Source: Promethearchaeota archaeon
GTDB taxonomy: Archaea > Asgardarchaeota > Lokiarchaeia > Sigyniarchaeales > SOKP01
NCBI GenBank assembly: GCA_029838195.1
Contig: JALGVJ010000004.1
Location: 160,001-224,000, forward strand
Length of the DNA stretch: 64,000 bases
Direction of reading: 5' to 3'
Shown here: positions 45,710-60,587 of the stretch, piece after piece
Layout: each line of letters begins with the position of its first letter
How positions within the stretch are numbered: position 1 is the stretch's first letter
Notes under the pieces: model-generated
The model's database searches: none
What the model was told of the DNA's origin: nothing
What the model saw: only the letters and a program-made list of their open reading frames with translations
Program-made: the position numbers and the translations under genes

Positions 45710-46822
45710 ATGAAACATCTGGCAAGATTATGGGATAAAATTGATGACAATAAAGTTAAATGTCATGTATGCGCTAATGAATGCTTAATAACTCCGGGTA
45801 ATGTTGGGATTTGTAGGACTCGGAAAAATTTTGATGGAAAATTGTTCACTTTGATTTATGGTTCTTTAATTTCTTCAGGAAGCATAGATCCTATTGAAAA
45901 AAAACCTCTTTATAATTTCTGGCCAGGAGCAACGGCTTATTCAATCGCCTCTATTGGATGCTCCTTCCGTTGCGCAAATTGCCAAAATTGGTCTATTAGT
46001 CAAGCAAGTCCTTCCGACAACGGAAAAAATGGTTTTTACACATTAGAGGGGTTAGAAAATCGAAGAATGTCCTTAATAGAATTAAGTCCAGAAGAATTAG
46101 TAAAAAGGGTCGTGAAAAGTAAGGCAAAAACCTTAGCCTACACGTATAATGAGCCTTTAATTTGGCATGAATGGATTTTAGACGTTACACCCTTATTAAA
46201 GAGGGAAAATATAAAATCTATTTTGGTTACAAATGGATATTCTACGCCTGAAGCCTCAAAAGAGTTAATAGAAGTGGGGATTGATGCCGCAAATATAGAT
46301 GTTAAATCAATGTCTGATACGTTTTATAAAAAGATATGTGGTGTCAAATCTGTTAAACCCGTATTGGAAACAGCAAAAAGGTTTAAAGAATACGGAATTC
46401 ACGTGGAAATAACCAATTTAATCATCCCGGACTTGAACGACAAGAAAGAAGAGATTAAACAATTATGTGATTGGGTGGTAAATAATTTAGGAAAGGACAC
46501 TCCGGTACATTTTTCGGCATATCATCCTGATTTCAAAATGCCTTCAAGAAAAAGAACATCTTATCGCACTCTTGATATGGCTTATAATATCGCAAGAGAA
46601 GCTGGCTTATATTTTCCTTATATAGGAAACATACACCATGAAAAAGGAAGTAATACCTACTGTCCTCAATGCAATCACTTACTCATTGGAAGAGAAGGAT
46701 ATAGTTTTACCAAAATTGATATTACAGAGGATAAGAAATGTCCAAATTGTGGATATAGCTTAGAAAATGCAATAATTGGTGAAATAAATAAAAATCGCAA
46801 GGATAGATTTGCCTTTTTTTAA
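45710..46822 (+). CDS. amrS: AmmeMemoRadiSam system radical SAM enzyme
   Basis: CHVCANEC, DPIEKKPLYNF, CSFRCANCQNW, AYTYNEP, AANIDVKS, HVEITNLIIP, YIGNI, TYCPQC. Confidence 0.92.
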   Translation: MKHLARLWDKIDDNKVKCHVCANECLITPGNVGICRTRKNFDGKLFTLIYGSLISSGSIDPIEKKPLYNFWPGATAYSIASIGCSFRCANCQNWSISQASPSDNGKNGFYTLEGLENRRMSLIELSPEELVKRVVKSKAKTLAYTYNEPLIWHEWILDVTPLLKRENIKSILVTNGYSTPEASKELIEVGIDAANIDVKSMSDTFYKKICGVKSVKPVLETAKRFKEYGIHVEITNLIIPDLNDKKEEIKQLCDWVVNNLGKDTPVHFSAYHPDFKMPSRKRTSYRTLDMAYNIAREAGLYFPYIGNIHHEKGSNTYCPQCNHLLIGREGYSFTKIDITEDKKCPNCGYSLENAIIGEINKNRKDRFAFF

Positions 46823-47664: not shown

Positions 47665-49344
47665 TTAAATAAAGGCGATAGTCTTCTTGATATAATCCAA
47701 GTATGTATTAATTTCTTGATTTTTTTTTTTTTCATTCCACCCATATTCCTTAGCCATGATATCTGCAACTATTCTTGCTGCTTTTTCTTGCTTTCTATGG
47801 TCGATGAAAATTGCCATTTCAGTACGCCTACAGAATACATCGATCAGATGAAGCGTGAGTTCATAACGGAGAGTGTAAACAATTTCAGCTTTAATAAAAT
47901 AATAATCCTCTAAAATTTTCTCAGAAAGGTGAGGATTTTCTTGAATGATTTCTAATATTTTCAAGGCTCCTCTTCTATATTGTTGAAAAAGATGATTAGA
48001 GATTTTCTCATCCAATTCAAATCCACTTTCTTCAAGAGCCATTAGCCAATCTTCTTTTTCTATCATGATAATGAATTTTTGTTTTGAAAAGCCTTTTTCT
48101 CTATGAATGTTAGGAAAAATGTCTTTTTTTTCCACCTCCTCAAAAAGATCCTCTGCCATTGCTCGCCATTCGGTCAATTTTCCTCCAGTGATTGTCAAAA
48201 GCCCATCATCAGAGAAAAATATTACATGCTTTCGAGAAACCTCACTCTCTGATTTCCCTTTTTGCATTACTAAAGGACGAATCCCCGCATAAGTAGAGAG
48301 AATATTATCATAATCCAATTCTGCATTTGGAAAATAATATTTTACCGATTTTATTAGATAATCAGCATCTTTTTTCGTACAAAAAGGACTTGATAAATCT
48401 CCTTCATAATCCGTATCTGTAGTTCCGATAATGGTGAAATCATCATTGCGAGGAAGTACAAAAAATGATCTATCGTCGGTTATAGAACTGATAATCGTTG
48501 CCATTCTATTTTTCACATGTTTTCTTAGAAATTGAACGTGCACTCCTTTTGTTGGTCGAATAAGAGGTTTGGGAATATTTTCAGGATAATTTCTTAGTAA
48601 TTGATCTGTCCATATGCCAGTGGCGCTTACGATTAATTTGCCTTTTATAATAACTTCCATGTTATTTTCGAGATCTTCACATTTTACCCCAATAATCTTT
48701 CCATTTTCTATTATATAATCCATAACCTTGCAATAATTAATTATATCCGCCCCTCTTACAACTGCTTCTTTTAGGATTTCAAGAGTCAATCTTGCATCAT
48801 CTACATTGCAATCATAATATACTACTCCCCCTTTGACTCCTTCTTGAATAAATTCTGGTTCCATCTCGTGAATTTTTTCGGCTGAATACCATTTATATTT
48901 CTTATAATTCTTGAATTCTTGACCATTATCACTTAAATAATCATAAATTTTACACGCTCCAGTGATATCTCTTCTTTTATACTTACCGCCTTCGATTTCG
49001 GCAAATAAAAAAGGGATGGGTCGGACTGTCGGGCAATGATGACGCATCCAATTTCGCTCGGTCGTAGCAGTTTTTACTAAATCCATTTCTCCGTAAGCCA
49101 AGTATCTAATTCCCCCATGAGCTAATTTAGAGCTTCGAGAAGATGTGCCTGCCGCAAAGTCTTGCATTTCAACTAGAGCAACTTTTAGATCTCGCATAGC
49201 TGCTTCTCGAGCTACTCCTGCTCCAGTGACTCCGCCTCCAATTATAATTAAATCGTAATAAGTAGACTGGAGTTTTTCAATTATATCATTTCTTGCAAAA
49301 TTATTCCAAGATATATCAAATATTTTACGTTCCAATTCGCTCAA
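47665..49344 (-). CDS. glpD: FAD-dependent glycerol-3-phosphate dehydrogenase/oxidase (GlpD/GlpA family)
   Basis: DLIIIGGGVTGAG, DFAAGTSSRSSKLAHGGIRYL, DDARL, RPTKGVH, IGTTD, YAGIRPL, SRKH, TGGKLT, RRTE. Confidence 0.93.
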   Translation of the reverse strand: MSELERKIFDISWNNFARNDIIEKLQSTYYDLIIIGGGVTGAGVAREAAMRDLKVALVEMQDFAAGTSSRSSKLAHGGIRYLAYGEMDLVKTATTERNWMRHHCPTVRPIPFLFAEIEGGKYKRRDITGACKIYDYLSDNGQEFKNYKKYKWYSAEKIHEMEPEFIQEGVKGGVVYYDCNVDDARLTLEILKEAVVRGADIINYCKVMDYIIENGKIIGVKCEDLENNMEVIIKGKLIVSATGIWTDQLLRNYPENIPKPLIRPTKGVHVQFLRKHVKNRMATIISSITDDRSFFVLPRNDDFTIIGTTDTDYEGDLSSPFCTKKDADYLIKSVKYYFPNAELDYDNILSTYAGIRPLVMQKGKSESEVSRKHVIFFSDDGLLTITGGKLTEWRAMAEDLFEEVEKKDIFPNIHREKGFSKQKFIIMIEKEDWLMALEESGFELDEKISNHLFQQYRRGALKILEIIQENPHLSEKILEDYYFIKAEIVYTLRYELTLHLIDVFCRRTEMAIFIDHRKQEKAARIVADIMAKEYGWNEKKKNQEINTYLDYIKKTIAFI

Positions 49345-49434: not shown

Positions 49435-50244
49435 TTATTTTGAAATTAAAAATTTGCGTTTAGATAAACGAATTCCAACATAAGAAATTGAAAAAGAAAC
49501 GAAAAAAGCAAAAGGTAAGTTAGCAATAATGATATAGGCAAATAGAGGGGTGGTAGAGAAAAAATAAAGAGAAATAATGAGAATCACTAAAAAAAACGAG
49601 CTAATAAATGTAATTTTTAAATGCCCTATTAGGAAACCTAAAATGAAGTTAGGAACGGTAAAAATTATAAGAATATTCGCAATGGCTAAAACCACTAATG
49701 CTGGCATGAACATGGTGAAAATTTCTAATTGGCTATATAATAATTGATCTAGCTGAAAAAGAGAATATAAAAATTGGGTGGTATTAAGAGAAATAAATAA
49801 TAAAAAGTATGATAAAGGGGCTACAATTAACCAAGAGAAAATTACCCTTTTTTTCATGGATGGCTGTTTTTTACCTTTTAAAGAGTTAGCAACTATTTTA
49901 TTCATTAAAACAGGATCAATTTTATTCACGTCATATTCAGGTGAATATTCGTCAATAAAATCTAATAATATCGTCTTTAAAATTTTATTAAGAAGGATAT
50001 TATTATCTTTCGAATTTGCAATCATTGCGCCCAAAAGACCTTCTCGACTCATTGAAATAATTATTAATTTTTTATTTTCACCCAAATCGAGATAATTAAT
50101 AACGCTATTTAAGGCCTCCCGAGAAAAATTTGTAATAGAGGAGAAGAATCCTATCAGTAAATTACTGTCAAATACGCTTTCTGTTAACAACTTTTCATAT
50201 AATAGAACACCATTTTCATTTAAAATATAAATGCTTTCTATCAC
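49435..50244 (-). CDS. Longin-like N-terminal domain fused to four TM helices
   Basis: MIESIYILNENGVLLYEK...DSNLLIGFFSSITNFSRE is a longin/sigma-adaptin-like start; C-terminal half hydrophobic. Confidence 0.72.
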   Translation of the reverse strand: MIESIYILNENGVLLYEKLLTESVFDSNLLIGFFSSITNFSREALNSVINYLDLGENKKLIIISMSREGLLGAMIANSKDNNILLNKILKTILLDFIDEYSPEYDVNKIDPVLMNKIVANSLKGKKQPSMKKRVIFSWLIVAPLSYFLLFISLNTTQFLYSLFQLDQLLYSQLEIFTMFMPALVVLAIANILIIFTVPNFILGFLIGHLKITFISSFFLVILIISLYFFSTTPLFAYIIIANLPFAFFVSFSISYVGIRLSKRKFLISK

Positions 50245-50280
50245 GAATCTTCACATTTTTTTGTTAGTCATGCCATGCTA

Positions 50281-52083
50281 TTAATTTTTCCCGGATGAGA
50301 TGGAATTCACATTGGTTTGTTGAACATATTCAATAAAATCATCTAAATCAGCTTGATATTTTTTAAAACTATATAAATGTTGTCCAAAAATTTTAATTAA
50401 TAGGAGGAATACATCGTGAGAATTTCGTTTAGTGTAAATTTTGTACTTTTCATTCTTCCTTTCTTCGAGGATAAGCAAAGATTCCATATTTTTCATCCTC
50501 TCAATATCCTCTTGTTTTGGATTATCCAATTCGATTAAGAGAATTTCTCCGGATTGAGGCAACTTAGACCTATAATCTTTTAGAGAACCTGTTTCCACGA
50601 TAAACTTTGAAATTATCAAGATCTTATCACATTGCGCAATAATTTCCTCAGGGCCTTGAAATATAAAAATTACATGATATTTAGCTTTTATTTTTTTAAT
50701 GAATTCGTTGAATTTATCATATTGAAGTTTATTTAAATAAAATTGTGGTATTTTAACTAAAAGGATGGTAGGAAGCTGTAATAAGACTCTACATGTTGAA
50801 AAAATTAAAAATTCCAGAGGATTTAGCTCATGCATTTTTTTATCTTTTTTATGGGTTAATCCGGAAATTTTCATTAATTCATCAATAAAATCCTTTTTCT
50901 CTTTCCATTTTCTTAATATTTTAAAAAGTCTTGCTCTTTTTTCAAACTCCTCATAAATCTCATCTTTTAGACCTAATAATCCGGCTTTTTTTAGTACCTT
51001 TTCTAATGCCTTTCTATGAATTCTTAAAGGACTTTTAACTTTAATGCCTTTTTTTAATGCTTTAGATAGAGGTAAATTTTTAATATTTTTCTTTTCCTCT
51101 GCAGAAAATATGAAAATATTATTTTTTTCTTCTGTGGTAAGTAATTGAACATGTTTTCCAAATATTTTAATGGTACCAACAAAATCCTCTTTAGTTCCTA
51201 TAAGAAAATCATGTAATTTAGGCAAAATTAAATCTATTTCTTCTTGAGTTAAATGATTCGAATCAATATAGATTCCTAGGGTCTGACTATTTCGAAGTTT
51301 AAAACTAATTTTATCTACATTCGACATGAGGGATACATTTTCAAAAATTAAATGCTGCGAATCTTTGAGAAGTGGGGGTAGTTTTAAGCGCTTTAAGATC
51401 TTTTCAATTAGTAATTCAACGAGTTCATGTACGTGCAACGGTTTATTTTCATCCCATTCTTTAATAGAAGGAATTTCTAAAAAATCTTTTAATTTGATAA
51501 TTCTTGAAAGTTTTGGAGAAAATGATATTTTAGGAACTAAAGGATACACTTCAAAATTCACGAATAAATTCAAAAAGAAATTGGGAAAATGAATAAAAAT
51601 TTCTCTATTAAAGGGATTGTTCTCAATACTATATGATTCAAAATGTTCGTCTAAAAGTTCTAATTCTTTTTCTAAAACAGATAAATGATAGCTATATTCT
51701 CTAACAATTGTTCTATTTAACCGTTTAATAATTTTTATTGGACTAATTAATCCATCTTCATCAAAATCGGGCTCTGCAGTAATTTCATTAAAATCAATTT
51801 CAGTTTCAACCGGAGTATGGATTTTTATTAAAGGAACTCCTTTTTCTAATACATCACGATTTGTGAAAAATAATACTTCTACATAGCTTTTCTTATAAAT
51901 TAAATTAAGAATTGTCATGACACCGAAGGTTCCCTCTCTATAAATCATCCAATACCGTTTTGAACTTCGCACGGCATCCAAGATTTTTGCTCTTAATAAT
52001 TTTAATTCTTGTTCCCGCTCATCTTTTTTTTTTAGATTTTCTTCTTCTATTGTTTCATTTTTTTCTTTTTCTTTAATCGTCAT
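50281..52083 (-). CDS. RWD/UBC-like domains fused to a degenerate (inactive) ABC ATPase domain
   Basis: LEKELELLDEHF...NFEVYPLVPKISF...WDENKPLHVHELVELL; ABC-like scaffold lacking Walker A, LSGGQ (LNPLE), Walker B (ILLVKIP) and H-loop (FQG); ATG 52083 behind GAGGAG. Confidence 0.7.
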   Translation of the reverse strand: MTIKEKEKNETIEEENLKKKDEREQELKLLRAKILDAVRSSKRYWMIYREGTFGVMTILNLIYKKSYVEVLFFTNRDVLEKGVPLIKIHTPVETEIDFNEITAEPDFDEDGLISPIKIIKRLNRTIVREYSYHLSVLEKELELLDEHFESYSIENNPFNREIFIHFPNFFLNLFVNFEVYPLVPKISFSPKLSRIIKLKDFLEIPSIKEWDENKPLHVHELVELLIEKILKRLKLPPLLKDSQHLIFENVSLMSNVDKISFKLRNSQTLGIYIDSNHLTQEEIDLILPKLHDFLIGTKEDFVGTIKIFGKHVQLLTTEEKNNIFIFSAEEKKNIKNLPLSKALKKGIKVKSPLRIHRKALEKVLKKAGLLGLKDEIYEEFEKRARLFKILRKWKEKKDFIDELMKISGLTHKKDKKMHELNPLEFLIFSTCRVLLQLPTILLVKIPQFYLNKLQYDKFNEFIKKIKAKYHVIFIFQGPEEIIAQCDKILIISKFIVETGSLKDYRSKLPQSGEILLIELDNPKQEDIERMKNMESLLILEERKNEKYKIYTKRNSHDVFLLLIKIFGQHLYSFKKYQADLDDFIEYVQQTNVNSISSGKN

Positions 52084-52093
52084 TTTCTTAATT

Positions 52094-55000
52094 CTACTCC
52101 TCAATTTCTATAGTTCTATATCTAAAATATTCTTCCATTCTTGATTCTGTTTGGAGAATTTTTTCTATAGAATCTTCTCCAAATTCTCTTTTAATAATTT
52201 CTTCGACCTCATTAATGGGCAGATCGGAATAAATAGAATAATCCGTTCCCGCCTTATCTTCTAAAACTTTAGAAATTCCTTCCATTTTTTCTAATTTCAT
52301 AATGACATTTTCTTGAACTTCTTTAAAAACAATTGTAATGGTTCTTCCTTTTCCTGGAAGCTGTTCTAAAAGCTCCTTAGGACTTCCGTAATCTATCAAC
52401 CCTCGATTCCTTCTAAATATGGCCACTTTATGACAAAAACGCGATTCTTCTGGATAATGAGTTATAACAATCAAAGTAGTATTAAATTGTTCATTGATCC
52501 GAGTGAGTGAAAGCCATAAATTTTCTCTCACGATGGGATCAAGACCACTCGTCGGCTCGTCCAGCCACAGAATGATTGGTTCATGAATTAAGGAAATCGC
52601 AATTGAAACACGCCGTTTCTGACCTCCTGATAAATTTTTCACGGGTTCATACATTTTATCCTCAATTTCTAATGCTCTTAAAATTCTACGGGCCCTTCGC
52701 CTCATCTCTTTTTCTGGAATCCCATATTGGTTGCCAAAATAGAGTAAATTTTGCAAAGTCGTGAAATTTTGATAAATTTTAGAAAGGTCTTGAGGACAAT
52801 ATCCATAAATGGGGCGAATTTTCTTGGCATTTTTTTTCACATCCATCCCATAAATTTGAGAAATCCCTTTAGTTTTTCTCATGCCCAATAATCCCTTGAT
52901 AAACGTACTTTTCCCAGCTCCGCTTTCTCCTAACACGCCTAAAATTTCTCCGTGTTTTAATTCCAGAGAAACTGAATCTACAATCAATTTTCGTCCAGCA
53001 TAAATACATAAATCTTCGCAGAATATTGCCGGAGAATTTTTTAAATAATCGATATTTAACTTTTCTCTAATATTTAATAACGATTTTACTCTTTCTATTA
53101 AATCAAAATACGAGAGGAAAGTTATAAAACCTAACAACCAAAAAAAAGCAATTTCAACTGAAAGAATCGATATTAATAATTGATTCCAAGGTGTAGGATC
53201 AAATGCACGATCATATTGGAAATAATCTATAATAGTGATCCCGAAAGGGCAATTTCTTAAATCTCCTCCGAAATTGGGGGCATCCCCTAATCCTCCCGTT
53301 TTTTTACTCACGCATTCTAAAAACCAATCTATTAAAGCGTTCATGTCTTCGGGTTGATACCGATAATCATACAATGCTTTAGAAGCACTATACGTGACTA
53401 GAAAATAAGAAATACTTATGCCTACATAAGTAGAAAGAGAGGGCATGATCGTAAACCCTCCATTATCTATTTGAGCTAATTTTAAAAATTCAACCGCTGA
53501 AATTTTTGATAAGGGATCTTTTTCCAGTGAAATCAATAATTCTAAACCATAATAGGTGGATATCACGTCACTATAAAATCCCATGAATAATGAAAAACCG
53601 CCATCCGCATTTTGGCAAGACTTTATCCAATGTTCTAATGAACTTATATTAATTTTTCCCAGACCACCTAATATTTTTAAAGATGAATAGGCCCAATAAC
53701 TGGTTTCTACAGTGGAAATATTTGTGTTGATTAAATCTATAATTAAATAATAATAGGAGCCAAAAAGAAATGAAATGTATTCGGTATCATTTCCTGCCCT
53801 AAAACCACCATCTGGATTTTGTAAATCAGCTAAATAATCTTGAGTGGTGGTTCGATTCGGAAGATAAATTTGTTCATGGGTAAAAAAAATTCTATACAAT
53901 TCAATAGCGCAAAATGTAGAAAATAAACTAGAATTCATTTGAGGACGAGAACCAAAACCGCCATCTTGGGGATTGTAACAATTTTCCACGAATTCCCAGG
54001 TATTATTAATGTTTATAAGTTCAGGAATTGCTGTTGAATTGTGCTGGTAAACCGAAAGTATACCTAAATAATTTGATTCAATTGTTATATGCCCAAACAA
54101 ACCATTTCTCGCTTGATGTTCATATAACCATTGATAATAATTAGAACGCACTTGTTTAATTCTTTCTTTAAACTCATCATCTAATAGAGAATATTTTTCA
54201 AATAGAGCAATTGTATTCATAGCAGCCCATCCCGATTTAAAAGTAGATTCATGTTTATCTCCCGGCCGTAAACCAAAGCCACCATCAGAATTATTACAAT
54301 TCAATACATAATTTAAAGTTTCAAATCTTTGTAAAGGCGTGAAACCGATTTCATACAGGGAAGAAACCGCATAAAACGTAGATTGTATATCCGAAGGTTC
54401 TCCCACTTGTCTGGCATATCCGCCGTCTAAATTGGCATACCTTAAAAGAGTAAAATAACTTATTATTAAACCCCTTTCTATTAAGCTATAGGTCATGTTC
54501 AATTCTAAGAAAGCTTTTATTCCATAGTAGGTGCTCTCAGGCGTTGGTAAAATAGTGGTGTTTGTATACGCGTACCCTCCTTCTCGCCATGTAGAATTAA
54601 TGAAACTTGAAAGATTGACGTTATTTAACAAGGAATGGGCAGAAAAATTTCCTGCTAATTTCACGGCACAATAAGTTGAGATGATGTCAGAATCATTCAC
54701 AATTGGATTAAGCCTAAAGCCATATCCATGGGGCTCTTGACTTTCTTTCAAATAATTGATAATTTTGTCAATTTTTTCCTCATCTATTACGGGATCAAAA
54801 AAACTGGGTTCCAATTTAGTGAGAGTTGCAACAACTTCATACGTGGAAAACATGTTGCTTAATCCATAAATATCTGAAAAGCCCCCATCATCATTTTGTT
54901 TTTCAAATAAATAATGAAAGAATAAATCGTCTACCTCGGGTTTAAGTAAGGAATTCGATTTAGGGTTTATCAAGTTAGACTGAGAAAATTCATCATCAGA

Positions 55001-55243
55001 GAAATTAATTGAATAAATGGCTCTATGCGTGGAATCTATATCAACTTCAATGAATAAACCAGAACTAGGATTTTGATGGGTTAATGCGAAGTAGAGCATG
55101 TCATCTTTAAGTTCTCTGATTTCTTCATCGTTAAAATACTGTTTATATGGTGTGTTTATGATTATCAATAGTAGTATGGGCGTCGCAAGTACCAGCGATA
55201 TGATAATAGTTGTTTTTATTCTTCGCTTCCATAAGTAATCTAT
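52094..55243 (-). CDS. TM - prenyltransferase/squalene-oxidase-repeat barrel - TM - ABC ATPase fusion protein; inferred ATA start at 55243
   Basis: Repeats QNDDGGF, CNNSDGGFG, CYNPQDGGFG, LQNPDGGF, CQNADGGF, AQIDNGGF; TM LLISILSVEIAFFWLLGFITFL; GESGAGKST, LSGGQ, LWLDEPTSGLD, ITH; upstream frame encodes WKRRIKTTIIISLVLATPILLLIII. Confidence 0.88.
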   Translation of the reverse strand: MDYLWKRRIKTTIIISLVLATPILLLIIINTPYKQYFNDEEIRELKDDMLYFALTHQNPSSGLFIEVDIDSTHRAIYSINFSDDEFSQSNLINPKSNSLLKPEVDDLFFHYLFEKQNDDGGFSDIYGLSNMFSTYEVVATLTKLEPSFFDPVIDEEKIDKIINYLKESQEPHGYGFRLNPIVNDSDIISTYCAVKLAGNFSAHSLLNNVNLSSFINSTWREGGYAYTNTTILPTPESTYYGIKAFLELNMTYSLIERGLIISYFTLLRYANLDGGYARQVGEPSDIQSTFYAVSSLYEIGFTPLQRFETLNYVLNCNNSDGGFGLRPGDKHESTFKSGWAAMNTIALFEKYSLLDDEFKERIKQVRSNYYQWLYEHQARNGLFGHITIESNYLGILSVYQHNSTAIPELININNTWEFVENCYNPQDGGFGSRPQMNSSLFSTFCAIELYRIFFTHEQIYLPNRTTTQDYLADLQNPDGGFRAGNDTEYISFLFGSYYYLIIDLINTNISTVETSYWAYSSLKILGGLGKINISSLEHWIKSCQNADGGFSLFMGFYSDVISTYYGLELLISLEKDPLSKISAVEFLKLAQIDNGGFTIMPSLSTYVGISISYFLVTYSASKALYDYRYQPEDMNALIDWFLECVSKKTGGLGDAPNFGGDLRNCPFGITIIDYFQYDRAFDPTPWNQLLISILSVEIAFFWLLGFITFLSYFDLIERVKSLLNIREKLNIDYLKNSPAIFCEDLCIYAGRKLIVDSVSLELKHGEILGVLGESGAGKSTFIKGLLGMRKTKGISQIYGMDVKKNAKKIRPIYGYCPQDLSKIYQNFTTLQNLLYFGNQYGIPEKEMRRRARRILRALEIEDKMYEPVKNLSGGQKRRVSIAISLIHEPIILWLDEPTSGLDPIVRENLWLSLTRINEQFNTTLIVITHYPEESRFCHKVAIFRRNRGLIDYGSPKELLEQLPGKGRTITIVFKEVQENVIMKLEKMEGISKVLEDKAGTDYSIYSDLPINEVEEIIKREFGEDSIEKILQTESRMEEYFRYRTIEIEE

Positions 55244-56256
55244 TTAGCACCACCCCCCTTAACTTCCATTTGATACTCCCATTCTCTTTTTTCTTTTAAT
55301 TCTTCTTCTTGTATTCTTAATTGAAAATATCTTCGAAAAGTTGCCCTATCTTTATTAAAAGAATTAATTTTTACATTATTTTTAATTAAATATTCAATCA
55401 AATTTGGTAATTCTTGTTCAAAATTTTCAATAAATACCTCAATGACATCGTTTCCTACTCGTATTATTTTTTCTACCGGAAAGGTTTTAAAAACATTCAT
55501 GACATCTTGGTTTAATCTTTCAATCGTGAATCTAGCCAACATGCCTTTACTCGGAAGAGTTGAGATTAATATCTGAGGATTTTCAAATTCAAGGATTTTC
55601 CCTTGCCGTAAGATGGCAGCTTTATCGCAGATTAAAGAGCATTCCATGTCATGTGAGATTATAAACATTGTAGTGCCTAATGTTTGATTTAATTTCTTGA
55701 GATAACTTAAGATTTCATATCGTTTACTAGCATCGACTCCTGTTGTAGGCTCATCAAGAAATAGAACCTCTGGTTGATGAATGAGCCCAATTGCCATAGA
55801 CACTCGTTTCTTCTCACCACCACTCATGCGCTCTAATGGTTTTTTCCACGTATCTTCCGGAATATCTAAAATGTGAAAGAGCTGTTCCGCAACTTCTTCC
55901 GATTTTTTTGTTTTCAAACCGTATGCAGAAGCAAAGGTATCAATATTAGCTTTAGGTTTCAAATCATAGTAAAGATTTAACTCTTCGAGCTGAGGAACAT
56001 ACCCTATGGAAGCTAAAATTTCTGCATGATTGCTCTTTTTAGCAGGTGACAACCCATTTACAAGAATCTTTCCAGTCCAATATTTTTTACTCAATTGGCA
56101 TGTAATCGCTCGAATTATGGTAGTTTTTCCTGCACCAGAAATCCCAAAAAAACCGATAATCTCACCTTTTTTAACAGAAAATGAAACGTCGTGAATGACT
56201 TGTTTTTTGCCGAACTTTACGTTTAGATTCTCTACGATAATTACTAGTTCTCTCAA
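55240..56256 (-). CDS. ABC transporter ATP-binding protein (ABC-2/multidrug-type)
   Basis: GISGAGKTT, YVPQ, MSGGEKKR, LFLDEPTTGVD, ISHD. Confidence 0.94.
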   Translation of the reverse strand: MRELVIIVENLNVKFGKKQVIHDVSFSVKKGEIIGFFGISGAGKTTIIRAITCQLSKKYWTGKILVNGLSPAKKSNHAEILASIGYVPQLEELNLYYDLKPKANIDTFASAYGLKTKKSEEVAEQLFHILDIPEDTWKKPLERMSGGEKKRVSMAIGLIHQPEVLFLDEPTTGVDASKRYEILSYLKKLNQTLGTTMFIISHDMECSLICDKAAILRQGKILEFENPQILISTLPSKGMLARFTIERLNQDVMNVFKTFPVEKIIRVGNDVIEVFIENFEQELPNLIEYLIKNNVKINSFNKDRATFRRYFQLRIQEEELKEKREWEYQMEVKGGGAK

Positions 56257-56341
56257 TTTTATGTTCCTTCCACGTGTTTTGTTCAGATTTTTAATTTTTT
56301 AATGGGATTCATGATGGTTTTTTAAAAATTTCAAGAATTGT

Positions 56342-57571
56342 TTAAACCTCATATTTTCTTAAATAAAAAACGATGAAGCTAAGCACGAAAAATAAACAAC
56401 TTATGCCTAATAACCAATAAAAATCAAAACCAAAAACCGACTTTCCTTTCGTGACTATTCCCGTTATAATGGGTTTTCCATGGGATAAAGGCAACATGTA
56501 TGCTGCAACTTGTAAATAGACGGGCATGGATTCGATTGGAACGAAAATCCCGCTTAAAATCACGATTAAGATGAAAAAAGCAAAAAATAATTGATTAGCT
56601 TCCGTTTTGGTATTACTCGTACAACTTATGAATATGCCCATGCTTAAGGCGGCAAAACCAATCATGTATAATGCAAGAAATAAATCAAATAATGAGCCAA
56701 CCAAATACAAGCCATTCAAGAGGCTTGAAGTTAAAAGTATGATAACTTGGGCCAATAAGATAAGGGAATACGTGATGTATTTTGATAATAAGATCTCATG
56801 TCTTTTAAGCGGCGTGAGAAGTAATCGTGCGATGGGTTTTTCTCGAACGACGACTAAAATCGTCAAGACCATTGAAATACCAAAAATCATCATTGGTAAT
56901 AACAATGTCATGGCATTATTAAATTGAAAATTATAATTGGGAGGAATGGAAAATTCTTCATAACCAACAATCTTGAATTGCGATGTTAATTTATTGTCAT
57001 GAACAAATATATTAAGAGAATCTTGAACTGCATTCAAGAATTCCTGTAATTTTTGAATGTCAGAGGAATCTACAATGCATTGAATGAACGCCGGTTGACC
57101 CCAGTTGATCATTTCAGAAAAATCCATGGGAAGGACGATGATTATACTGATTTTATTCGAAAGCAACTGATTTCTTGCTTTTTCCATTGCATAAACTTCT
57201 TCAGAAGCATTATAAAATTGCTCTAATGAAAGTTTTTGAGATTTATTCACTGCATTCACGTAAGGAATGGTATAATTATCAATTTTATGCTCAGTATAGT
57301 CATTAGGATTTATGAATGTATTTGAATCGTAAGATATAACTATTGTTTTAATAGGAATGGGATTCTGACTAGAACTAATGGATAAATAGGCAAAAAGCGT
57401 GATGATCAAGGGAGGAAGTACTAAGGCTATAAATAAATTATAAGGGTCACTGCGTAATAATCGAAATTCTTTTTTAACCATTTTTAAAATTCTGAAAAGG
57501 CTGGCTTTTATATTTCGAAAGAATCGCCTTGAATTCCCCTTCTTTCTCAGTCTTAAAATGCTAGAAGCCAC
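56342..57571 (-). CDS. ABC-2 type permease with extracellular domain
   Basis: MVKKEFRLLRSD, VVREKPIARLLLTPLKRHEILLSK, LSGIFVPIESMP, LPLSHG; start at GTG 57571 behind GGAGG. Confidence 0.9.
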   Translation of the reverse strand: MASSILRLRKKGNSRRFFRNIKASLFRILKMVKKEFRLLRSDPYNLFIALVLPPLIITLFAYLSISSSQNPIPIKTIVISYDSNTFINPNDYTEHKIDNYTIPYVNAVNKSQKLSLEQFYNASEEVYAMEKARNQLLSNKISIIIVLPMDFSEMINWGQPAFIQCIVDSSDIQKLQEFLNAVQDSLNIFVHDNKLTSQFKIVGYEEFSIPPNYNFQFNNAMTLLLPMMIFGISMVLTILVVVREKPIARLLLTPLKRHEILLSKYITYSLILLAQVIILLTSSLLNGLYLVGSLFDLFLALYMIGFAALSMGIFISCTSNTKTEANQLFFAFFILIVILSGIFVPIESMPVYLQVAAYMLPLSHGKPIITGIVTKGKSVFGFDFYWLLGISCLFFVLSFIVFYLRKYEV

Positions 57572-57572
57572 T

Positions 57573-58733
57573 TCAAACCTCCACTTTTTTAATTTTAAAT
57601 ACAAGATAAGCCAAGAATAGAAAAACTAAACTAATCAAGTTTAATGGGATAAAATCTTCAAGAGAAATGGATAATCCCTTAAGTGTAATGCCGGTTAACA
57701 GGGAGATCGCATGACCTAATGGTAGACTATTGATTAATACTAGCATTACGGGAGACAAGGAGGATTCATCGACAAAAGCTCCCGAGAAGATTAGAATTGT
57801 AATGAAAAACATGATATAAAGTTGATTTGCAGTTTGTTCTGAAGGACTTATGGCTGATATGAATAATCCAATGCACGTGCCACAAAATCCGATGGATACC
57901 AACACCAGATATAGCTCGAGTAAAGAACCTAAAGAATATAACCCAAATAACGCAATAGTAACAAAAATTTCTGCTGATTGTAAGATCATGATCAAGGTAT
58001 TTGCTAATAACTTGCTTAAAATGATTTCGATTTTTGCTGTCGGAGTTAATAACATTCGAGGAAGCGGCCCTTCGGAAACAATGGAAAGCGAGGTTAGATT
58101 CATTGTCGTTCCTAGAACGATAAGAGGAAGCATGATGGAAACGGCATAATTTAAAACTTGTGTTTCCCAAAAGGGAACATCAAATTCGAGGGAAGGCGCC
58201 ATGACGGTCATGTTTTCTGTCATTCCCACTTCAATCCGGAATAAAGCAATGGGCTCTTGCAAGGATACTTCAATGGCGGCTACTGCGTTTAAATCTGAAC
58301 CATCGACATGATAAATGATAACAGGATCTACTTTCTTAATAACGGATTCAGAAAAGTTTTCAGGTAATACGATAAACACATCAATGGTTTCTTGCCTCAA
58401 TAATTCAATATATCTATTAAAAGTATACTCATATCCAGAATAATTATGAGCAATATACGATTCATAGAGACCGAAAGAACTCGTATTATCCCGCATTATG
58501 GAAATAAAAACATCATCATACTGATGCGCATCCTTCTCCTTTCTAAAACCCTTCCAACAATGCATTTCATCCTTACTTAAAACCGCGGCATTAAAATATT
58601 TCGTCGGGCCTCCCCCTGAAGTGAGACCAAATACGATAATTAAAATTAAGGGGATAAGAAACAAAAGGATGAGAGTCCTTCTATCAGATCGAATACGACC
58701 AAATTCTTTAAAAATCAACCCGCGAATATTCAA
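57573..58733 (-). CDS. ABC-2 type permease with extracellular domain
   Basis: KEFGRIRSDRR, VDGSD, RMLLTPTAKIEIILSK, GLFISA, FSGAF, LPLGHA. Confidence 0.9.
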   Translation of the reverse strand: MNIRGLIFKEFGRIRSDRRTLILLFLIPLILIIVFGLTSGGGPTKYFNAAVLSKDEMHCWKGFRKEKDAHQYDDVFISIMRDNTSSFGLYESYIAHNYSGYEYTFNRYIELLRQETIDVFIVLPENFSESVIKKVDPVIIYHVDGSDLNAVAAIEVSLQEPIALFRIEVGMTENMTVMAPSLEFDVPFWETQVLNYAVSIMLPLIVLGTTMNLTSLSIVSEGPLPRMLLTPTAKIEIILSKLLANTLIMILQSAEIFVTIALFGLYSLGSLLELYLVLVSIGFCGTCIGLFISAISPSEQTANQLYIMFFITILIFSGAFVDESSLSPVMLVLINSLPLGHAISLLTGITLKGLSISLEDFIPLNLISLVFLFLAYLVFKIKKVEV

Positions 58734-59144: not shown

Positions 59145-60587
59145 CTACATGAGATAAGTATTTTGAAACCATTCTTCTAAATTTTTAAATCTTCTCGATT
59201 TAAACGATAAGAGGAGATGATTGCGAGCATCCTTATTTATTCTTTCAAACAAAGCCTTACAAAGATCTGGATTGTCTCTGGCAATATCGTGTTCCCATTT
59301 AGGATCCTTGCTAAGATCAAATAATTTTTGAAAAGTTTGGTCATTAGAAGTTATTAAGGCATGATGATCATCTTTATATAGCGTCCAAAGGGCCATTCCA
59401 CAAGTCACGTAATTTCTTCCTTCAATAAAATGATCATCTTCGTTAACAAACACGGATAAATCTATACCTTCAAAAATATCCGGAATTTCTTTATTTAAAA
59501 ATCCAAGAATCGTAGGCAAGACATCATGAATGTACACGTGCGTTTTTTTCACGCGCTTAGGCCCATTTACTCCGCCAGGAGGTTTGATAATAAAGGGAAT
59601 CTCAACTAATTCAGGATATAAGAAAGTAGGAATTTTTCCAATAGCTCCATGCTCCCCTAATAAGTGCCCATGATCACTAGTTAAAATAATTAAAGAATCT
59701 TCATATAGCTCCATTTCTTTCAATTTTTCCATGAAATATCCAAACCACGCATCACATTGAGAAACTTCTCCCGCATAACAAGCTCTCATGCAGTTTAATT
59801 CTTCTTCAGATAAATAATCATGAGTCTCAGAATAGAGAGGATGTATGATTTTATTACCATTATAGTTCTCATCTAAATAGAGATTTAAATATTTATCAGG
59901 AGGATCCCAAGGCTCATGCGGGTCGAACTCATCAATTAAAAGAAAGACATTATTATAGTGTTTTAAAGTTTCCAACGTTTCAACAGCTTGTCGAAAAGTT
60001 CTTGCCGGAAAATAATCTTTTTCTTCTTTTCTATCCTGGACATTGGCGAGATATCGATTTAATAAGAGTTTTTGTATTTGAACTTGCGAGCGATTTTCTT
60101 TAGTCTTTTTTATTAAGAACTGGCGTACAAGTTGATTAATTTCTCGTTTATCTCCCTTTATTCTCGCCCGATATTTATCAAATTCTTGTCCCCGAATGAA
60201 ATGCCATTCATCAAATCCAAGATGGAAATTCATGTTGGGTTTAAATTGATGATACGTGCTGGAAATAAAAGCTGTAATAAAGGCAAATCGATTTAAATAC
60301 TCTGATAGATGAACTTGATGGGAAGGAATGGGAGTCCAACCGGGCGATTCAGTCATATCATCTGTTCGAAGGTAGGGTGGATCGTTATCAAAAGGAAATG
60401 TTCGAATGCCGGTATGAATCGCTCTTCGAGCTGGAATAGTTGGTAAAGATTCGGGATAAGCATTATCAAATACTATCGCGTCTTTAGCAAATGCATCGAA
60501 ATTAGGTGTTTTTATCCAGTCATTGCCATGAGTTTTTCCCGTGTGATCTTTACGGAGTGTATCAAAAATGATGAGAAAGATTTTCAT
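59145..60587 (-). CDS. Sulfatase-like hydrolase (alkaline phosphatase superfamily) with Thr at the nucleophile position
   Basis: FDTLRKDH, TPNFD, PTIPARRAIHTG, FDPHEPWDPP, YAGEV, TSDHG, DVLPTIL, LFDLSKDP. Confidence 0.88.
   Translation of the reverse strand: MKIFLIIFDTLRKDHTGKTHGNDWIKTPNFDAFAKDAIVFDNAYPESLPTIPARRAIHTGIRTFPFDNDPPYLRTDDMTESPGWTPIPSHQVHLSEYLNRFAFITAFISSTYHQFKPNMNFHLGFDEWHFIRGQEFDKYRARIKGDKREINQLVRQFLIKKTKENRSQVQIQKLLLNRYLANVQDRKEEKDYFPARTFRQAVETLETLKHYNNVFLLIDEFDPHEPWDPPDKYLNLYLDENYNGNKIIHPLYSETHDYLSEEELNCMRACYAGEVSQCDAWFGYFMEKLKEMELYEDSLIILTSDHGHLLGEHGAIGKIPTFLYPELVEIPFIIKPPGGVNGPKRVKKTHVYIHDVLPTILGFLNKEIPDIFEGIDLSVFVNEDDHFIEGRNYVTCGMALWTLYKDDHHALITSNDQTFQKLFDLSKDPKWEHDIARDNPDLCKALFERINKDARNHLLLSFKSRRFKNLEEWFQNTYLM

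Follow-up and report, generated by a model that had tools for sequence, protein, structure and literature searches.

A six-gene cluster of Lokiarchaeia joins an ABC-2 pump and a predicted outward-facing prenyltransferase-like domain to an RWD/UBC-like dead ATPase and a membrane-anchored longin protein

Introduction

The locus described in this work raises the question of whether eukaryote-type trafficking and regulatory modules can be components of an archaeal membrane pump. The locus lies within a stretch of 64,000 nucleotides (hereafter, the window) from a Promethearchaeota archaeon of the class Lokiarchaeia (assembly GCA_029838195.1, contig JALGVJ010000004.1, positions 160,001 to 224,000 of the forward strand), where six neighboring genes, here named P1, P2, A1, F, G5 and G6, encode the elements of an ATP-binding cassette (ABC) transporter along with proteins carrying longin and RWD/UBC-like domains. 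Both domains belong to the "eukaryotic signature" folds that are central to ideas on the origin of eukaryotes, and their roles in archaea are almost wholly obscure. An initial annotation, made from the DNA letters and the open reading frames (ORFs) of the window, had presented the six genes as a candidate exporter of undescribed architecture. In this work, this proposal was followed up by profile and structure searches, comparative genomics and a survey of the literature, confirming that the cluster joins an ABC-2 pump and a prenyltransferase-like domain, predicted to face outward, to an RWD/UBC-like dead ATPase and a membrane-anchored longin protein.

Results

A conserved cluster of six co-oriented genes

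The region 49435-58733 of the window, which is AT-rich (~32% G+C) and derives from an assembly of 4.5 Mb in 94 contigs, is occupied by six ORFs co-oriented on the minus strand in the order P1, P2, A1, F, G5 and G6 (Table 1). The ORF map agreed with the initial annotation in the tight packing of the genes, and the distances listed there (1, 85, an overlap, 10 and 36 bp) were reproduced when starts were set at GTG 57571 for P2, ATA 55243 for F and ATG 52083 for G5; restricting starts to the first ATG, GTG or TTG of each frame, the series becomes overlap, 85, 71, overlap and 36. GTG 57571 is the likely start of P2, as the resulting 409 amino acids (aa) agree with the 407-411 aa of its orthologs.

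By tblastn of the six proteins, the order P1-P2-A1-F-G5-G6 was found in 13 complete loci of the family of the source genome (the home family), spread over at least 10 genera. A fourteenth is truncated where its contig ends, and three short contigs also agree with this order. Since this order recurs in the loci of other genomes, the arrangement is not a product of chance. Five other GTDB families of the class have variant clusters: family f7 (locus L054) has all six genes, family f2 (L057) has P2 to G6 in order on a contig that begins inside P2, families f4 and f6 have A1-F-G5, and in family f5 the genes A1-F-P1-P2 are adjacent but rearranged, with a divergent G5. Thus, the synteny of G5 and G6 with the transporter genes in related genomes, on which the initial proposal depended, holds across genera and families.

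In a sample of 400 genomes of the phylum, the ectodomain of F was matched at an expectation value (E) <= 1e-60 in 83 genomes, all of the same class, and no strong match was obtained in the other classes searched. In this sample, F and strong matches to the N-terminal domain of G5 share genomes, being adjacent in ~70 of them, and F and G5 matches listed on one contig were always within a few kb. In the home family, 74 genomes out of 134 carry it, with a patchy distribution even inside genera. The closed single-contig relatives G032, G038, G171, G198 and G199 gave no strong match to F or G5, so that the system may be absent from cultured strains. Because of this patchiness and the lack of strong matches outside the class, the cluster appears to be an accessory system whose genes come and go together. 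The database homologs, 229 for F and 96 for G5, derive exclusively from Promethearchaeota or Loki-type metagenome bins, and are named generically or as "hypothetical", with a few designated as geranylgeranyltransferase. Clustering of the flanking ORFs revealed no conserved seventh gene (5 loci have a ~180-aa ORF nearby and 4 have an RNase_H_2 gene). Nor did the conserved neighbors include a gene for a GTPase or for a component of the ubiquitin system.

The transporter core

P1 and P2 matched the ABC2_membrane_3 family (PF12698) with E 3.6e-20 and 1.2e-29, respectively, and both scored above the Pfam cutoff for PF12698, PF01061 and PF12679; P2 is a paralog of P1, with ~30% identity in their alignment. 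According to hydropathy, P1 is predicted to have an N-terminal transmembrane (TM) helix, an extracellular loop of ~150 aa and five C-terminal TM helices, and a first helix followed by a C-terminal bundle, as in ABC2_membrane-type permeases (~6 TM), was found in P1 and P2. The ATPase A1 displayed intact Walker A (GISGAGKT), signature (SGGEKKR), Walker B (LFLDEP) and H-loop motifs, and matched PF00005 (ABC_tran, E 4.9e-25) as well as TIGR01188 (drrA, E 6.5e-54 over aa 14-307). As both A1 and the nucleotide-binding domain (NBD) of F carry the full motif set, Q-loop included, the cluster encodes the two NBDs that an ABC-2 exporter requires.

The initial annotation had further singled out a C-terminal module starting with LPxxG in all three ATPase-like domains. 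The motif is indeed present (LPSKG at aa 234 of A1, LPGKG at aa 962 of F and LPQSG at aa 515 of G5), and the C-terminal regions of the three proteins can be aligned with one another. Its reading as a special feature did not stand, since TIGR01188 covers that region in A1; judged by sequence, the module is the ordinary DrrA/GldA-type C-terminal domain of ABC-2 ATPases and involves no novelty.

An ATPase fused to a putative extracellular toroid

The open frame of F comprises 1049 codons, beginning with ATA 55243 and overlapping the A1 stop (ATAG); residues are numbered from this position. Hydropathy predicted exactly two TM helices (aa 11-29 and 689-707), with PF00432 repeats between them and an ABC ATPase domain after the second, which bears out the TM-barrel-TM-ATPase fusion initially described. 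The NBD matched PF00005 (E 3.1e-27) and TIGR01188 (E 2.4e-53), and its catalytic residues are invariant across 19 orthologs. The ectodomain contains ~10-11 D-G-G-F/Y repeats of the prenyltransferase-beta/terpene-cyclase type with a spacing of ~50 aa, a number that would suffice for about two alpha/alpha toroids. It matched RabGGTase-beta in the PDB (E 7.5e-15), and every one of its ESM-Atlas neighbors carried Prenyltrans or SQHop_cyclase.

These repeats should face outward, because positive charges adjoin the cytoplasmic ends of both helices (positive-inside rule) and the ATPase must be cytoplasmic. Sequons (N-x-S/T) support this topology, being enriched in the ectodomain (15, versus 7.0 +/- 2.4 in composition-matched shuffles, 0.2% of which reach 15) and in the P1 loop (4, versus 0.8 expected), and not in the cytoplasmic parts, where the counts (A1, G5, the F NBD and the G6 longin domain) do not exceed expectation.

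With regard to prenyltransferase beta subunits, F has the toroid repeats, lacks the Zn-binding Asp-Cys-His triad and the alpha partner, and is not predicted to have its toroid in the cytoplasm. Among the 19 orthologs, the ectodomain displayed no invariant His, no D-C-H type Zn triad and no conserved DxDD motif, and no prenyltransferase alpha-subunit gene was found in or near the cluster. Since a Zn site and the acid of class II cyclases thus find no support, the toroid more probably serves for binding outside the cell than for catalysis. The geranylgeranyltransferase name that some database records of F orthologs carry should therefore be taken with caution as evidence of protein prenylation in Asgard archaea.

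The beginning of F deserves separate mention. The first canonical start is TTG 55168, and the 25 codons upstream of it (55169-55243, minus strand) encode a basic-then-hydrophobic signal anchor, which lies before the first ATG, GTG or TTG. At the protein level, this anchor is conserved in every one of the 15 orthologs with a contig that reaches the F 5' end; ~10 of these likewise lack an upstream ATG, GTG or TTG, with just ATA or ATT codons close to where the frame begins. These features suggest that translation of F starts non-canonically or by coupled re-initiation.

RWD/UBC-like units on a dead ATPase

The AlphaFold2 model of aa 29-247 of G5 (predicted local distance difference test, pLDDT, 87) consists of two alpha-beta4-alpha units. 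A VIA search with this model against 48,161 chains yielded Z values at the borderline level of the tool. The second unit matched, over ~100 residues, an E2 (Z 9.3), the UEV-like domain of VPS37A (8.5) and RWD domains (8.4 and 8.1), with nearly all of the top 50 matches belonging to the RWD/UBC/UEV superfamily; the first unit matched the Ltn1 RWD domain (Z 7.8, a borderline value), and both units jointly aligned to the FANCL DRWD and Knl1 tandem RWD domains (Z ~7.4-7.6). The assignment to the RWD/UBC fold follows from the consistency of this match list rather than from the height of the Z scores. Foldseek retrieved FANCL, CENP-O and UbcH5, and the Y-P-x-x-P turn is conserved, with Y187, P188 and P191 invariant or nearly so. 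A direct Pfam scan of G5 and its orthologs gave no RWD or UQ_con match above cutoff; a hidden Markov model (HMM) of the G5 N-terminal domain matched Loki proteins of 566-588 aa (E ~3e-15), and the matched segments score above cutoff in Pfam as UQ_con (36 bits) and RWD (34.5 bits). Hence, the fold initially read in G5 was recovered by model and structure searches, with a transitive link at the sequence level. The alignment of the N-terminal domain, in which a catalytic Cys after HPN was sought, contained no invariant Cys, and therefore G5 does not qualify as an E2.

The Loki proteins of 566-588 aa (L051:9428-11194, L055:8725-10425) are the closest sequence relatives of the G5 N-terminal domain. 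They contain about four UBC/RWD-like units, with UQ_con, RWD or UBC_like matches above or near cutoff, and a related protein is encoded in the source genome itself (L052:7638-8633). One of them has a weak C-terminal match to Prok-RING_1 (E 0.02), and their architecture resembles that of FANCL (E2-like fold, double RWD, RING).

The C-terminal half of G5 gave weak NCBIfam matches to TIGR03522 (GldA) and TIGR01188 (DrrA) over aa 386-578, a profile of 15 G5 orthologs matched ABC NBDs in the PDB (E 5.6e-9), and one divergent ortholog exceeds the PF00005 cutoff. Aligned with A1 and F, G5 has lost Walker A, the signature and the Walker B aspartate, and has kept the H-loop region and the whole C-terminal domain. 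The G5 of the window and its orthologs in f1 contain none of the motifs of an active ATPase (GxxGxGK[ST], LSGGQ, Walker B D-E), and divergent orthologs keep just motif remnants (e.g., LSEGEKRR). The description of G5 as an RWD protein with a dead ATPase was thus upheld, its catalytic motifs being lost while profile matches retain the relation to NBDs. Regarding its origin, a G5 HMM matched F-type better than A1-type NBDs in two of the three loci compared (E 3.6e-15 versus 2e-11 in L054, and 7.9e-11 versus 2.6e-9 in L057), and in L056 the two types of match overlap; the NBD and C-terminal domain of G5 can moreover be aligned throughout. This is consistent with a putative duplication of the neighboring F-like ATPase.

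Two apparent fusions involving G5 were discarded: the 896-aa homolog P0175 is not a G5-G6 fusion, as its extra 316 N-terminal residues match neither protein, and a 1509-aa F-G5 ORF in G232 is spurious, as it stems from a scaffold gap filled with Ns.

A longin domain on a membrane anchor

The AlphaFold2 model of G6 (pLDDT 85) displayed a domain of longin topology followed by four to five long helices. In Foldseek searches against the PDB, the top 50 matches were all of longin/roadblock type (best E 4.6e-5, TMt 0.5-0.71), including AP sigma, mu-N, zeta-COP, TRAPP Bet5/Trs23, Sec22b, Mon1-Ccz1 and LAMTOR, and a shape search of the ESM-Atlas retrieved the protein's own Promethearchaeota cluster, followed by Asgard longin-Arf fusions and eukaryotic AP sigma. 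The longin fold assigned to G6 in the initial annotation was, therefore, found again by structure. At the sequence level, one of 18 orthologs matched a longin-type Pfam family (Sybindin, E 0.016), none above cutoff, and the G6 profile gave no match against the PDB. The membrane domain was also considered as a truncated permease, on account of one ABC2_membrane_3 match among the orthologs; this was rejected, as hhalign against P1 and P2 gave a probability of 0.1. The predicted complex of full-length G5 and G6 scored 0.00, which gives no verdict and is evidence neither way.

Features and surroundings of the cluster

The coordinates of the genes and their domains are listed in Table 1. The cluster is flanked by genes for a GlpD-like FAD oxidoreductase (47665-49344, minus strand) and a sulfatase (59145-60587, minus strand), with a radical SAM protein gene further away (45710-46822, plus strand); their adjacency to the cluster is not kept in other genomes. 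Sequencing runs listed for this DNA, which occurs in hydrothermal or sediment samples, were six, all of metagenomic DNA and none of RNA. In genus g4, two antisense genes encoding 239 and 152 aa (L041:9686-11068, with an equivalent in L044) split the cluster into two transcription units. Genome G033 encodes a truncated G5 of 267 aa, corresponding to just the C-terminal half of the pseudo-ATPase, and, elsewhere, a different ABC-2 cluster with a 592-aa ATPase (L056:8360-10138) bearing an N-terminal domain of ~290 aa.

Table 1. Genes, predicted domains and related features of the six-gene cluster (positions in the window, except for the interrupted A1 orthologs, given by locus).
Feature	Position	Strand	Description
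P1	57573-58733	-	ABC-2 permease, 386 aa
P2	56342-57571/57604	-	ABC-2 permease, 409-420 aa
A1	55240-56256	-	Soluble DrrA-type ABC ATPase, 338 aa
F	52094-55168/55243	-	TM / alpha-alpha toroid / TM / ATPase fusion
F N-terminal signal anchor	55157-55243	-	KRRIK basic stretch, then hydrophobic helix aa 11-29; hydropathy 2.74
F ectodomain	53180-55156	-	aa 30-688; PF00432 Prenyltrans E 9e-40 in 4 stretches
F second TM helix	53123-53179	-	aa 689-707, then basic stop-transfer segment; hydropathy 2.37
F ABC ATPase domain	52094-53122	-	GESGAGKS, LSGGQ, WLDEP and H-loop intact; DrrA-type C-terminal domain from LPGKG
G5	50281-52083/52104	-	607 aa; two RWD/UBC-like units and degenerate ABC domain
G5 N-terminal region	51364-52020	-	aa 29-247; two alpha-beta4-alpha units, RWD/UBC/UEV fold
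G5 C-terminal half	50281-51363	-	aa 248-607; degenerate ABC NBD and DrrA-type C-terminal domain from LPQSG
G6	49435-50244	-	269 aa; longin-fold domain and ~4 TM helices
G6 longin-fold domain	49870-50244	-	aa 1-125; beta-beta-alpha-beta-beta-beta-alpha-alpha
G6 membrane domain	49435-49857	-	aa 130-264; ~4 TM helices, basic C-terminus
Interrupted A1 orthologs	L036:7667-7724, L040:7272-7330, L044:4041-4100, L046:7595-7655(-), L061-L068		Interruption of A1

A probable bulge-helix-bulge intron in A1 orthologs

In 12 of ~70 orthologous clusters, belonging to six genera, A1 is interrupted by 31-34 nt between the DEPTT and GVD codons (Walker B / D-loop); the A1 of the window has no such interruption. 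The inserted segment contains stops or shifts the frame, and all 12 fold as a canonical bulge-helix-bulge (BHB), with an outer helix of three pairs contributed by the exons, a central helix of four pairs, a 3-nt bulge at each junction, placed on opposite strands, and an inner hairpin. In the alignment, 97.2% of the cells are paired, compared to 83.3% in shuffles and <=50% in slid controls, and seven pairs show compensatory changes. One covarying pair links the two exons through the third positions of a Glu codon and a Gly codon, where the changes are synonymous, and uninterrupted alleles mostly have GGA at that Gly codon, unable to pair. Cutting within the bulges restores the reading frame of A1. 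Judging from its predicted fold, the interruption is likely a BHB intron, spliced by EndA, that resides in a protein-coding gene in Lokiarchaeia. Two alternatives were rejected: re-initiation at a second start, as most alleles have no in-frame start codon, and ribosomal bypassing, as the take-off codon finds no matching landing codon in any allele. Asgard tRNA genes are rich in BHB introns (bioRxiv 10.64898/2026.10.13.758758), and protein-coding BHB introns are known for crenarchaeal cbf5 (PMC2738675); no report of a BHB intron in an Asgard protein-coding gene was found in the literature searched.

Discussion

We consider, with a probability somewhat above even, that the six genes specify a lineage-specific form of ABC-2 exporter or lipid extractor (type V, DrrAB/YbhFSR-like), with G5 and G6 as accessory subunits. 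P1 and P2 would form a heterodimeric membrane domain, and A1 and the ATPase domain of F a catalytically competent heterodimeric motor. F would cross the membrane twice, placing its ~660-aa double toroid on the outer face, over the permease loops, where it would most likely receive or hold the exported molecule. An isoprenoid-based lipid or a lipid-linked surface component would be a plausible cargo, because such toroids bind prenyl chains in their central cavity. G5 and G6 would be non-catalytic subunits on the cytoplasmic face, scaffolding or regulating the pump as MlaB does for MlaFEDB. That the six proteins form one complex we infer from the linkage of their genes.

Several observations weigh against this proposal. 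An ABC-2 pump has only two NBD sites, which leaves no obvious docking place for a third NBD-like subunit. In addition, the linkage of G5 and G6 to the pump is looser than that of the other genes: the two antisense genes of genus g4 part F from G5, in the closed 3.7-Mb genome G033 the truncated G5 and G6 are adjacent (L047:1311-2947) with no pump genes nearby, and no G6 was found near the cluster in family f5, where G5 is divergently transcribed. These same facts favor two adjacent units, with P1-P2-A1-F as a complete transporter, already holding two competent NBDs, and G5-G6 as a separate signaling or scaffold pair, co-inherited with the pump but not bound to it. We regard this arrangement as unlikely, though it is the best placed of the alternatives, as it has to accommodate the co-occurrence of F and strong G5 matches in the same genomes, with adjacency in ~70, and the nature of G5, which is itself an ABC-NBD derivative sharing its C-terminal domain with F and A1 and would thus be suited to interact with ABC machinery.

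A mechanotransmission device, comparable in principle to FtsEX, MacB and LolCDE, could be built from the same parts: ATP hydrolysis by F would move the toroid via the TM helix, remodeling or releasing a surface component. A covalent connection of NBD and ectodomain by a single TM helix is well suited to transmitting force and is not the usual arrangement for transport, and the toroid is devoid of catalytic signatures. However, the permeases belong to ABC-2 (type V) families, whose characterized members translocate lipids, glycolipids and drugs, and not to the MacB/FtsX type, making this possibility rather improbable. Lower still we place the more specific form of the exporter proposal, whereby G5 and G6 would be true subunits coupling an isoprenoid-lipid exporter to Asgard small-GTPase or ubiquitin-like signaling, which we find doubtful; if true, it would constitute a prokaryotic case of eukaryote-type trafficking and regulatory modules controlling membrane-lipid or surface export.

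The toroid might instead be an active extracytoplasmic prenyltransferase or terpene-cyclase-like enzyme that modifies the exported substrate, as suggested by its significant similarity to the RabGGTase and FTase beta subunits and by the names of some ortholog records. This is very unlikely in view of the residues missing from the 19 orthologs and the lack of an alpha-subunit gene in the cluster, and also because prenyl diphosphate donors are located in the cytoplasm. Finally, an importer with the tethered toroid as the substrate-binding domain delivering ligand to P1/P2 recalls the existing importers with fused substrate-binding proteins, and is the least probable of these alternatives, since ABC-2 membrane domains and DrrA-type ATPases are exporter-type families and the toroid is fused to the ATPase, not to a permease.

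Returning to the exporter with accessory subunits, no published description of the six-gene system was found in the literature searched, including an Asgard transporter census, an ESCRT survey, the asCOG paper and a Loki cell-biology review, and to that extent the claim of an undescribed architecture is sustained. The relevance of the cluster lies in its placing both eukaryotic signature folds together with a well-understood, expressible and purifiable ABC-2 pump, which offers a concrete and testable membrane context for them.

Each component resembles known proteins. The N-terminal domain of G6 shares the longin fold of Asgard longin/roadblock families, like that of AP sigma, TRAPP and Sec22, and the N-terminal domain of G5 shares the RWD/UEV/E2 fold of Asgard UBC/RWD families, with a sequence relation to the Loki multi-UBC/RWD proteins; unlike in these families, the domains are here fused to a four-helix anchor and to a dead ABC domain, respectively, inside a transporter cluster. 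Neither the longin-TM nor the RWD-dead-ABC architecture was found in the literature searched on Asgard signature domains. With protein prenyltransferase beta subunits and class II terpene cyclases, F shares the alpha/alpha toroid of D-G-G-F-type repeats, whereas its toroid is predicted to be extracellular, has no Zn triad, DxDD motif or alpha subunit, and contains about twice the repeats of a single beta subunit.

As a whole system, MlaFEDB and LptB2FGC are comparable by analogy only. They combine an ABC motor with a TM-anchored extracytoplasmic lipid-binding accessory (MlaD and LptC, respectively), and Mla has in addition a small cytoplasmic accessory on the ATPase (MlaB). In contrast, their permease folds and accessories are unrelated to those described here (MCE, STAS and beta-jellyroll versus toroid, RWD and longin), and in our cluster the ectodomain is fused to the ATPase itself. 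The closest likeness is to the DrrAB, NatAB and YbhFSR ABC-2 (type V) exporters, which have ABC2_membrane_3 permeases with a large first extracellular loop and DrrA-family ATPases with a C-terminal domain starting with LPxxG; heterodimeric permeases and two ATPase domains are also possible, as in YbhFSR. The cluster departs from these exporters in that one ATPase is fused across the membrane to a ~660-aa toroid predicted to be extracellular, and in the conserved presence of a third, dead NBD with RWD/UBC-like domains and of a longin-TM protein.

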